Numbered from the stretch's first letter, positions 1-1,538 are shown. The stretch is 3,901 nucleotides of DNA from a virus (IMGVR_UViG_2713896783_000032), one strand, 5' to 3'. Numbers and translations are program-made. Notes: a model not told the origin generated them from the letters alone.

Positions 1-162
1 ATTACGAGCCAGGGCTTCCGGATGGCTGTCGTCGTACAGTTCCGGGAACGTCATCCCCAGTTCGAAATAAGTCCGGGCTATTTCAGCTGCAGGAACTTTC
101 TCACCATCAGGATATGCCCAGGCATTCATCGCCATGCGGATGTGCTCATGTTTGATTTTCAT
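1..162 (-). CDS. ydaT: YdaT-like protein (proposed cII analogue of Rac-type prophages), N-terminal 54 codons only; 3' end runs off the window
   Basis: Minus-strand ATG at 162..160 opens a frame that stays open to position 1, translating MKIKHEHIRMAMNAWAYPDGEKVPAAEIARTYFELGMTFPELYDDSHPEALARN. This matches my memory of the E. coli Rac YdaT N-terminus. A possible SD (AAGAGG) lies about 10 nt upstream, inside the ydaS coding region. Not in the supplied ORF track because it is truncated. Confidence 0.65.
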   Translation of the reverse strand, partial: MKIKHEHIRMAMNAWAYPDGEKVPAAEIARTYFELGMTFPELYDDSHPEALARN

Positions 163-469
163 GAATCATTTGCCTCTTGATGCTTCGGGTATGATCGTTT
201 TCGTCATTTGGTTGCTTCATCGACATATTCTGCGAATAACATGACGAGCGTCGTAAGTATGTCCAATCAACATCAGGACGAAGTTCTTCACACAGGACAC
301 CACCTTTTGTTGCTCGTTCAATCGCAGGACATCTCTCAGCAGGCAACTGACGTACACCTTTGATCCATTGATTTACGCTTGGAGGAGATACACCTAAAAG
401 CCTAGCCATTGCTGATTGCCCACCGACAACAGCACAAGCTCGTTTGAATGAATAGTTATCTTTTTTCAT
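146..469 (-). CDS. ydaS: YdaS-like Cro/CI-type helix-turn-helix regulator (cro analogue)
   Basis: ORF track 146..490 (-). The codon at 490..488 is GTG; the more likely start is the ATG at 469..467, which has GGAG 8 nt upstream, giving 107 aa. Translation MKKDNYSFKRACAVVGGQSAMARLLGVSPPSVNQWIKGVRQLPAERCPAIERAT... is an HTH motif and resembles Rac YdaS from memory. It is divergent from the repressor gene and overlaps the downstream ydaT-like start by 17 nt. Confidence 0.8.
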   Translation of the reverse strand: MKKDNYSFKRACAVVGGQSAMARLLGVSPPSVNQWIKGVRQLPAERCPAIERATKGGVLCEELRPDVDWTYLRRSSCYSQNMSMKQPNDENDHTRSIKRQMIHENQT

Positions 470-496
470 CGAATGAACTCCAAAAAACACACAATA

Positions 497-526
497 ATAT
501 TAGGCTTAGCCTAATGCAATTGTCAA
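497..526 (-). promoter_or_regulatory. Candidate sigma70 promoter for the ydaS-ydaT transcript (PR-like): -35 TTGACA, 18-nt spacer, -10 TAATAT
   Basis: On the minus strand TTGACA is the reverse complement of plus 521..526 and TAATAT is the reverse complement of plus 497..502. The -10 sits next to operator copy 1 and the -35 next to copy 2. Predicted start is near 490, about 20 nt before the ydaS ATG. Confidence 0.45.
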
Positions 527-565
527 TAGGCTATGCCTAACACTTCGAGAGTAGGCATTGCCTAA
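499..565. promoter_or_regulatory. Tripartite operator (OR-like): three copies of the dyad TTAGGC-N3-GCCTAA
   Basis: Copies at 500..514 (TTAGGCTTAGCCTAA), 526..540 (ATAGGCTATGCCTAA) and 551..565 (GTAGGCATTGCCTAA). Centre-to-centre spacing is 26 and 25 bp. They lie in the 103-bp divergent region between the ydaS-like and racR-like genes. Confidence 0.65.
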
Positions 566-593
566 TGCGATGCGCATAGGAGACTATTAAGCA

Positions 594-1070
594 ATGCTTA
601 GTGGTAAAGACTTAGGCCGAGCGATAGAGCAGGCCATTAACAAAAAAATTGCATCAGGAGCCGTCAAATCAAAGGCGGAAATCGCACGTCATTTCAAAGT
701 CCAACCACCATCAATCCATGACTGGATTAAGAAAGGTTCGATAAGTAAAGACAAACTTCCAGAACTATGGCGTTTCTTTTCTGATGTGGTTGGTCCAGAG
801 CATTGGGGGCTTAACGAATACCCCATACCAACCCCATCCACTTCAGATACAAAAAGTGAACTTTTAGACATAAACAGCCTTTATCAAGCCGCCTCTGATG
901 AAAAAAGAGCAATTGTGGCTTTCCTCTTATCTGGAAATGCTACGGAGCCTAGTTGGGTTGATCATGACGTTCGTGCCTACATTGCCGCAATGGAAATGAA
1001 GGTAGCTAACTATCTGAAAAATCAAGAATCAAAACGGAAAAGCCAGAACATCACCAAGACAGGAACTTAA
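594..1070 (+). CDS. racR: RacR-like prophage repressor (CI analogue), 158 aa, N-terminal HTH
   Basis: ORF track 594..1070 (+). AGGAG at 578..582 lies 11 nt before the ATG. Translation MLSGKDLGRAIEQAINKKIASGAVKSKAEIARHFKVQPPSIHDWIKKGS... resembles E. coli Rac RacR from memory. It is divergent from the cro-like gene and flanked on both sides by the same operator motif. Confidence 0.85.
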   Translation: MLSGKDLGRAIEQAINKKIASGAVKSKAEIARHFKVQPPSIHDWIKKGSISKDKLPELWRFFSDVVGPEHWGLNEYPIPTPSTSDTKSELLDINSLYQAASDEKRAIVAFLLSGNATEPSWVDHDVRAYIAAMEMKVANYLKNQESKRKSQNITKTGT

Positions 1071-1164: not shown

Positions 1165-1204
1165 TTAGGCGTAGCCTATTGACAAGCAATTAGGCATTTC
1201 CTAT
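1165..1204. promoter_or_regulatory. Second operator pair (OL-like) with the same dyad motif
   Basis: Copies at 1165..1179 (TTAGGCGTAGCCTAT) and 1190..1204 (TTAGGCATTTCCTAT, one mismatch in the right half). Centres are 25 bp apart. One abuts the -35 and the other overlaps the spacer and -10 of the promoter below. Confidence 0.6.
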
Positions 1205-1207
1205 AGT
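1179..1207 (+). promoter_or_regulatory. Strong candidate sigma70 promoter (PL-like), rightward: -35 TTGACA, 17-nt spacer, -10 TATAGT
   Basis: TTGACA at 1179..1184 and TATAGT at 1202..1207 with exactly 17 nt between. Predicted start near 1214, pointing into the small downstream gene and on toward xis-int. Confidence 0.65.
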
Positions 1208-1385
1208 TTTCCCATACCAACCCATCCCGTCCCACACAATACAGGGCAATACCTAGAGTTACCCGGCAGTGGTCAGGGATTAAGTAGCCAGCCCGAGGCG
1301 TAAGAACATGACGGCAGGGTTCAACTTTAACTATGCAGCAGGTTTTTGTTCCGCTACCCCGGCGTTAAGGGGATATGAGGTCAGC

Positions 1386-1538
1386 ATGGATACTCTTGAT
1401 CTTGGCAACAACGAATCTCTGGTGTGCGGCGTGTTTCCCAACCAGGACGGCACGTTCACCGCGATGACGTATACCAAAAGCAAAACGTTTAAAACCGAAT
1501 CTGGCGCGCGTCGCTGGTTAGCAAGAAACTCTGACTAA
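1386..1538 (+). CDS. Small prophage protein, 50 aa, resembling the YdaF/YdfA (DUF1391) family; first gene of the PL-like operon
   Basis: ORF track gives 1308..1538. The internal ATG at 1386 has GAGG 5 nt upstream and yields MDTLDLGNNESLVCGVFPNQDGTFTAMTYTKSKTFKTESGARRWLARNSD, which matches my memory of the roughly 51-aa YdaF/YdfA proteins of Rac and Qin. The 1308 start (76 aa) is a possible alternative. Confidence 0.55.
   Translation: MDTLDLGNNESLVCGVFPNQDGTFTAMTYTKSKTFKTESGARRWLARNSD

Follow-up and report, generated by a model that had tools for sequence, protein, structure and literature searches.

The three dyads that separate the divergent cro-like and repressor genes of the analyzed window (the whole stretch of viral DNA studied here, 3,901 nucleotides) very probably serve as operators for RacR, the repressor that governs the immunity switch in prophage Sp6. 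[quoted passage not shown] The three-site picture is nevertheless incomplete: the operator comprises a fourth dyad, located over the racR start codon, and a further part downstream of racR. This downstream cassette and the breadth of conservation of the operator may be new.

The Immunity Region of Prophage Sp6 and Its Operator Sites

The first 1320 bases of the window are 100% identical to genomes of E. coli O157:H7, including prophage Sp6 of strain Sakai, where the region adjoins potC and is annotated as 'prophage Sp6; lambda-like phage'. The window is the immunity region of this Rac-type lambdoid prophage, in which the start of a YdaT-family gene and a ydaS-like gene on the minus strand are followed by racR and a ydaF-like gene on the plus strand, a hypothetical gene on the minus strand, a recE remnant, xis, and int. 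The racR, ydaS, and ydaT genes of Sp6 are intact open reading frames; the early-left side is degraded, with a remnant of recE and a stretch between the ydaF-like gene and xis that is much shorter than in K-12 Rac. A run of 50 Ns (2355-2404) masks the sequence beside the recE remnant. The hypothetical gene (ECs_1504, minus-strand ORF 1653-2168) encodes paired CxxC motifs, and a family search with it gave no significant match.

The repressor gene of the window is a racR orthologue: its product scores 246.8 bits on the NCBIfam RacR equivalog NF049929 (cut-off 200) and shares 92% identity with K-12 RacR across all 158 residues. The YdaS proteins of Sp6 and K-12 are 85% identical. A search of RacR against Pfam matched zero families, hence no S24 domain was detected, and a sequence search of PDB returned a single chance match (E = 0.63). 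The AF2 model of RacR has a helical N-terminal domain, for which the top Foldseek matches in PDB were the helix-turn-helix proteins Xre, lambda cI, and C-protein, all with E > 0.1; these weak matches are consistent with a helix-turn-helix domain and do not prove it. Three residues of the N-terminal domain differ between Sp6 and K-12 RacR, namely A23S, I30V, and H42Y, the last of which sits in what we take to be the recognition helix. The intergenic region and its flanks contain the following features:

146..469, minus strand, ydaS-like cro gene (PF15943, 3.8e-30; PF14549, 1e-08)
162..160, minus strand, start codon of the YdaT-family gene, annotated beside the ydaS-like gene
497..526, minus strand, PR-like promoter PydaS: TTGACA 526..521, 18-nt spacer, TAATAT 502..497; 10/12 consensus positions
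500-514, dyad 1, TTAGGC TTA GCCTAA, 0 mismatches, overlaps the PydaS -10 box
526-540, dyad 2, ATAGGC TAT GCCTAA, 1 mismatch, abuts the PydaS -35 box, with base 526 in common
551-565, dyad 3, GTAGGC ATT GCCTAA, 1 mismatch, contains the -35-like TTGCCT of the racR promoter
558..585, plus strand, putative racR promoter: TTGCCT 558-563 (4/6), 16-nt spacer, GAGACT 580-585 (3/6)
587-601, dyad 4, degenerate, TTAAGC AAT GCTTAG, over the racR ATG
594..1070, plus strand, racR repressor gene (ATG 594-596; NF049929 equivalog)
612-617, plus strand, lone half-site TTAGGC within racR codons 7-8

Dyads were scored by the number of mismatches to TTAGGCNNNGCCTAA (TTAGGC-N3-GCCTAA, 15 bp). The whole 3901-base window contains five matches with at most two mismatches, compared with 0.11 expected, the mean of 200 dinucleotide-preserving shuffles, none of which reached five. 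The first-pass annotation had described three dyads at a regular spacing of 25-26 bp; its interval 499-565 indeed encloses all three, and both the start-to-start and the centre distances are 26 bp between dyads 1 and 2 and 25 bp between dyads 2 and 3. The fourth and fifth matches (1165-1179 and 1190-1204) lie beyond that interval. The same annotation had placed the sites over a leftward TTGACA/TAATAT promoter and between divergent genes, and both statements hold: the -10 box of PydaS is situated in and beside the left half of dyad 1 and its -35 box abuts dyad 2, and the flanking genes are the cro-like gene at 146-469 on the minus strand, identified by PF15943 and PF14549, and racR at 594-1070 on the plus strand.

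The intergenic region was compared across 11 E. coli and E. ruysiae variants that share 82-100% identity with the window. One of the 48 half-site columns varies, as do 35 of the remaining 82 intergenic columns (Fisher p = 1e-7). The sole varying half-site base is 556 in dyad 3, which is C, G, or T. The half-sites of dyads 1 and 2 are invariant while their spacers are variable, and these spacers, like the 10 bp that link dyad 2 to dyad 3, change almost freely; dyad 4 does not vary in any of the 11 variants. Such constancy of the half-sites is the pattern expected if they are contacted by a protein and under selection. Of 5426 complete E. coli genomes, 1086 (about a fifth) retain the intergenic region. 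It is essentially single-copy, being found in at most two places per genome, which argues against the presence of another set of RacR-type operators alongside the first; a count of '4 places' arose only with a longer query that took in coding sequence.

The two hexamers of PydaS are the same as in the mapped K-12 promoter and do not vary in the 11 Escherichia variants. On the racR side, TTGCCT and GAGACT match 7 of 12 consensus positions and were not called by the promoter scan; we infer that they are the counterpart of the leaderless K-12 promoter PracR3. The earlier remark that no convincing -35 box is visible for racR was overstated, given a 4/6 TTGCCT inside dyad 3 and 16 nt upstream of GAGACT. 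The -10 box of PracR3 is GAGACT in Sp6 and GAGAAT in K-12, whereas the dyad overlapping the ATG is identical, and position 584, within this -10 box, is A, C, or G among the Escherichia variants. The K-12 PracR2 -10 box AGTAAG corresponds to TCGAGA in Sp6 (541-550 region). The counterpart of K-12 PracR4, a PRE-like promoter inside ydaS, is found at 347-352 and 374-379, with a -35 box CTGACG in place of K-12 TTGACG and an unchanged -10 box TACGCT; as judged from this T to C change, YdaT-dependent racR transcription may be weaker in Sp6. Because PracR2 and PracR3 differ from K-12 in their -10 boxes and PracR4 in its -35 box, autoregulation and racR-side control may differ in detail, quantitatively. 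Over the ydaT start codon, TTGATTTTCATGAATCAT at 152-169 is identical to the footprinted K-12 'YdaT-box' (TTGATT-N6-AATCAT; PMC11879457), from which the CII-like activator acts on PracR4.

RacR Binding in K-12 Rac and the Predicted Operation of the Sp6 Switch

The gel-shift, footprinting, and reporter checks proposed for the Sp6 sites have been carried out in the literature on the K-12 orthologue, with the outcome that RacR binds and ydaS is repressed. Three GCCTAA/TTAGGC repeats, RacR binding, and ydaS repression were described in K-12 by Krishnamurthi et al. (2017; PMC5700373), who observed three RacR-DNA complexes in EMSA and one complex on a 49-bp fragment with a single repeat, enrichment of the region in RacR ChIP-qPCR, and repression of a ydaS promoter-gfp fusion. 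DNase I footprints with purified RacR subsequently gave the consensus T/ATAGGC-n3-GCCTAT/A (Wisniewska et al., 2022; NAR; PMC9638921). The nine TARGC boxes counted in the K-12 operator in that work match the four dyads plus the lone half-site of the window; the lone TTAGGC half-site within racR was also noted for K-12 (PMC5700373, PMC9638921). The ydaS promoter region, which holds the counterpart of dyad 1 (TTAGGC GAC GCCTAA), was protected at the lowest RacR concentration, and the footprint also covers the dyad overlapping the ATG (PMC9638921). Dyad 4, the presumed autoregulatory site, is the counterpart of 'operator 3' in the same study; 'four inverted repeats' are described in PMC11014345, in which K-12 RacR behaved as an octamer in size-exclusion chromatography. 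We found no published report of point mutants in the half-sites of the RacR operator.

The K-12 promoters are also defined by experiment. The TTGACA/TAATAT boxes of PydaS were mapped by primer extension, and a substitution in the -10 box abolishes the promoter; three racR promoters were mapped, with the leaderless PracR3 as the main promoter, and repression in in vitro transcription requires that RacR is added before the polymerase (PMC9638921). The alignment of the Sp6 and K-12 intergenic regions is unambiguous, and all four dyads and both PydaS hexamers coincide column for column. From the K-12 data, and given 92% identity of the protein and 85.5% identity of the intergenic region, we infer RacR binding, repression of PydaS, and autorepression for Sp6.

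According to the mechanism proposed here, a RacR dimer would bind each 15-bp dyad, probably through its N-terminal helix-turn-helix domain. RacR on dyads 1 and 2 would bar RNA polymerase from PydaS and thereby keep ydaS, ydaT (encoding a CII-like protein), and the replication genes silent. Dyad 3 covers the -35-like element of the weak racR promoter, and the weaker dyad 4 covers the racR start codon, in K-12 also the start of the leaderless transcript; occupation of the latter site would limit RacR synthesis at high RacR concentration, and dyads 3 and 4 together presumably mediate autorepression at higher RacR levels. Further downstream, the cassette at 1165-1207 probably allows RacR to control the early-left side, with the ydaF-like gene followed by xis and int, as OL/PL does in lambda.

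The weakness of the racR-side promoter, which has 7/12 consensus positions and was missed by the promoter scan, would also suit a lambda-like PRM switch, in which RacR on one of the dyads activates this promoter in a positive autoregulation loop. The centre of dyad 2 precedes the racR ATG by ~61 bp, which we consider compatible with activation, and in vitro RacR at 50 nM, the lowest concentration tested, 'seems to activate' PracR3 when added after RNA polymerase (PMC9638921). However, the K-12 racR promoters drive lacZ in a strain lacking Rac, which shows that an activator is not required, and RacR reduces its own expression ~3-fold in vivo (PMC9638921); moreover, dyad 3 covers the -35-like element instead of flanking it, a point in favour of occlusion, and the known activator of racR is the CII-like protein YdaT, acting through PracR4 inside ydaS (PMC11879457). 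The first-pass suggestion of an activator-dependent promoter of the PRM type therefore retains the in vitro stimulation of PracR3 on its side, is at odds with the RacR-free activity and the autorepression in vivo, and is in our judgement unlikely to be right.

The two other regulators of the switch act on the same region. YdaS is an autorepressor (PMC9638921, PMC11014345) and is described as competing with RacR for the operators (PMC11014345), YdaT protects the -35/-10 region of PydaS in K-12 (PMC11879457), and ydaS-like genes accompany the sites in the related loci that were inspected. The dyads are thus not exclusive to RacR. It is very unlikely, though, that they serve mainly YdaS (Cro-like) or YdaT (CII-like) and that RacR is a secondary ligand, for purified RacR alone footprints the sites and forms three EMSA complexes (PMC9638921, PMC5700373), the YdaT box TTGATT-N6-AATCAT at 152-169 is a different sequence, the YdaT-protected PydaS region contains no palindrome according to the authors (PMC11879457), and the downstream pair of dyads lies beside racR and far from ydaS.

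Since Sp6 is defective, with a degraded early-left side, a recE remnant, a short region from the ydaF-like gene to xis, and a T to C change in the PracR4 -35 box, its operator might be a decaying relic that has no present function. This reading is highly improbable in view of the intact racR, ydaS, and ydaT reading frames, of half-sites that stay unvarying across 11 lineages while neighbouring bases vary, of the retention of the intergenic region in 1086/5426 complete E. coli genomes, and of the K-12 counterpart, which is essential. The chance that the palindromes are random matches or RNA hairpins is negligible, as five matches were found against 0.11 expected and the half-site bases are conserved while the three spacer bases vary, a protein-site pattern; the scan does flag 515..499 on the minus strand as terminator-like, with a 7-pair stem and a T-rich tail, but the stem is dyad 1 itself and, being upstream of the PydaS start, it is not transcribed from PydaS, so that the terminator reading was rejected.

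A Putative Second Operator-Promoter Cassette and the Wider RacR Family

Downstream of racR, the window contains two further dyads and a rightward promoter-like site, followed by the ydaF-like gene:

1165-1179, dyad OL-a, TTAGGC GTA GCCTAT, abuts the -35 box of the rightward promoter
1179-1207, plus strand, PL-like promoter, TTGACA-17-TATAGT, 11/12 consensus positions
1190-1204, dyad OL-b, TTAGGC ATT TCCTAT, overlaps the -10 box of the rightward promoter
1308-1538, plus strand, DUF1391 ydaF-like gene

The two dyads are 25 bp apart, lie just downstream of racR, and are both present in K-12. The TTGACA-17-TATAGT promoter is the best promoter-like site of the region and is directed away from racR, toward the ydaF-like gene and then xis and int. 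The PydaS region, read on the minus strand (540..495), is composed of TTAGGCATAGCCTA-TTGACA-ATTGCA-TTAGGCTAAGCCTAATATTA, and 1165-1207 has the same build, TTAGGCGTAGCCTA-TTGACA-AGCAA-TTAGGCATTTCCTATAGT. Thus, racR is flanked by two inverted copies of one two-operator-plus-promoter cassette, and at the sequence level the bipartite OR/OL layout, with a second operator and an outward promoter past the repressor gene, is present.

Two other elements were noticed nearby. A weak dyad TTAGGT CGC ACCCAA (1146-1160; 3 mismatches) is located 19 bp to the left of OL-a and does not fit the 25-bp register; K-12 retains its left half, and it may be a third OL site. A hairpin ACGGGAA-N8-TTCCCGT (1085-1106), 15 bp past the racR stop codon and without a T-run, differs from K-12 by one stem pair, G:C to A:T, changed on both sides, and could be a weak terminator or a protein site.

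In K-12, ydaG, ydaF, kilR, ydaE, and racC are up ~40- to >70-fold when RacR falls (PMC6765115), a derepression for which the downstream pair would account, as it probably represses a PL-like promoter. A literature search, outside which a 2026 bioRxiv preprint on racR silencing lies, found no description of a Rac OL/PL or of RacR looping. Looping between OR and OL is plausible, given six dyads and an octameric repressor. We give even odds to a joint reading in which the 1165-1204 dyads and TTGACA-17-TATAGT form a functional RacR-controlled OL/PL, RacR octamers bridge it to OR ~0.6 kb away, and the whole is a portable module. In this reading, the octamers might connect OL/PL to the four-site OR and loop out racR; the two-dyad promoter cassette together with the ATG dyad may be an ancient and portable unit, distributed from Enterobacterales to Pseudomonas and Burkholderiales; and repressors with an S24 domain and the S24-less RacR types may use the same DNA-binding domain and operators.

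The first ~75 residues of RacR hardly change among its homologues in many Gamma- and Betaproteobacteria, and the C-terminal part varies. For 57 non-redundant loci encoding this conserved N-terminal domain (Enterobacterales, Pseudomonas, Burkholderiales, and Nitrosomonas), dyads with at most three mismatches were located relative to the start codon of the repressor gene. Of the 57 loci, 52 have a dyad at about -67, 44 have one at about -42, and 52 have one at -7, with a density of 23.8 sites per kb between -100 and +25 versus 0.43 per kb elsewhere. The canonical operator of the family therefore has three sites, the last one over the start codon, and the Escherichia Rac type, with sites at -94, -68, -43, and -7, has one extra unit. 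The -7 site is usually TTAGGC AAT GCTTA. The site at about -42 (44/57 loci), equivalent to dyad 3, never varies in its ATT spacer or in the GCC of its right half, which fits a second role as the -35-like TTGCCT of a predicted repressor promoter. A downstream pair of dyads 24-25 bp apart, with TTGACA between them and the -10 box inside the second site, was found in 24 of the 57 loci; none of the 57 has the same two-dyad promoter pair upstream of the repressor gene.

RacR-type repressors are also encoded by isolated phages, including vB_EcoS-683R6, which has all the same sites, Klebsiella phage KpF5, and Pseudomonas phages. In Pseudomonas phage vB_PaeS-D14H the dyads are weak, with two or three mismatches (five matches versus 1.4 expected); in the most distant members, the exact E. 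coli operator consensus no longer applies as it stands. Proteins encoded in some Pectobacterium and other genomes (P0101, P0102, and P0114) carry the RacR N-terminal domain, with 70-86% identity to RacR across the alignment, fused to an S24 (PF00717) LexA-type peptidase. These presumably cleavable repressors would be served by the same family of operators. By analogy with lambda CI, S24-bearing repressors would be SOS-inducible. In several betaproteobacterial loci (L013-L018 and L059), the start codon of the divergent cro-like gene lies within ~20 bp of the leftward -10 box, hence both switch genes may be leaderless or nearly so. Two loci come from metagenomic contigs binned far from this range: one binned as 'Candidatus Nanosynbacter' (L005) encodes a RacR 92% identical to that of the window, with K-12-like dyads, and one binned as 'Alistipes senegalensis' (L019) carries a RacR-type module. 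Both are probably MAG binning errors.

Comparison with Known Repressor-Operator Systems

In Rac-type prophages, the toxic genes ydaS and ydaT are held silent by RacR, the loss of which is lethal in K-12 (PMC11879457, PMC5700373). Its operator is thus the control point of a module that is present in about one fifth of complete E. coli genomes, including O157:H7. The closest known system is the racR-ydaS operator of K-12 Rac, with which Sp6 shares an orthologous repressor (92%) and cro-like gene (85%), the positions of the four dyads, the hexamers of PydaS, the dyad overlapping the ATG, and the lone half-site in racR. The two differ in the intergenic sequence, 85.5% identical over 131 bp, with changes in the spacers of dyads 1 and 2, the linkers, and the -10 boxes of PracR2 and PracR3; dyad 3 is nearer to the consensus in Sp6 (GTAGGC) than in K-12 (GTAGGG). 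The integration sites also differ, Sp6 being located beside potC, with its early-left part largely deleted, and K-12 Rac at another position. The Sp6 locus is a member of the RacR-type immunity regions.

Prophage CP-933P of strain EDL933 (PaaR2/YdaS/YdaT; Jurenas et al., 2021; PMC8630535) is likewise a cryptic lambdoid prophage of O157:H7 in which ydaS and ydaT occupy one side of the switch. Its four equally spaced intergenic palindromes resemble those of Sp6, its leaderless repressor gene and octameric repressor resemble those of K-12 Rac, and a PL/OL with similar operators has been described for it (PMC8630535). However, its repressor is PaaR2, its operators are of the GTTTAGTAA type, and a toxin-antitoxin pair is located downstream of the repressor gene; CP-933P and Sp6 have different immunity specificities.

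The lambda OR/OL system has in common with Sp6 the divergent repressor and cro genes, tandem dyads that overlap the lytic promoter at intervals of ~2.4 helical turns, a site where repressor synthesis is limited, and a second operator-promoter past the repressor gene; a leaderless repressor transcript and an octameric repressor (by SEC) are further common traits shown in K-12 Rac. The first-pass view of a repressor operator of the lambda OR type agrees with the K-12 experiments and the comparative data, whereas its one-to-one mapping of three sites on OR1-3 is inexact, as there are four dyads and the ATG-overlapping site is canonical across the family. Among the differences, YdaS is reported not to repress racR (PMC9638921). 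RacR sites are 15 bp long and unrelated in sequence to the 17-bp lambda operators, the OR of Sp6 has four sites and its OL has two or possibly three, and RacR is without the S24 autopeptidase domain according to Pfam. The distance between OR and OL is ~0.6-0.7 kb in Sp6 versus 2.3 kb in lambda. The conserved downstream OL/PL-like cassette, which could explain the published early-left derepression of Rac, and an operator layout conserved far beyond Enterobacteriaceae are additions that extend a known kind of system and bring no surprise. Thus, with an unrelated operator sequence, four OR sites, and no S24 domain, the Sp6 switch is lambda-OR/OL-like and not a strict member of the lambda-CI family.
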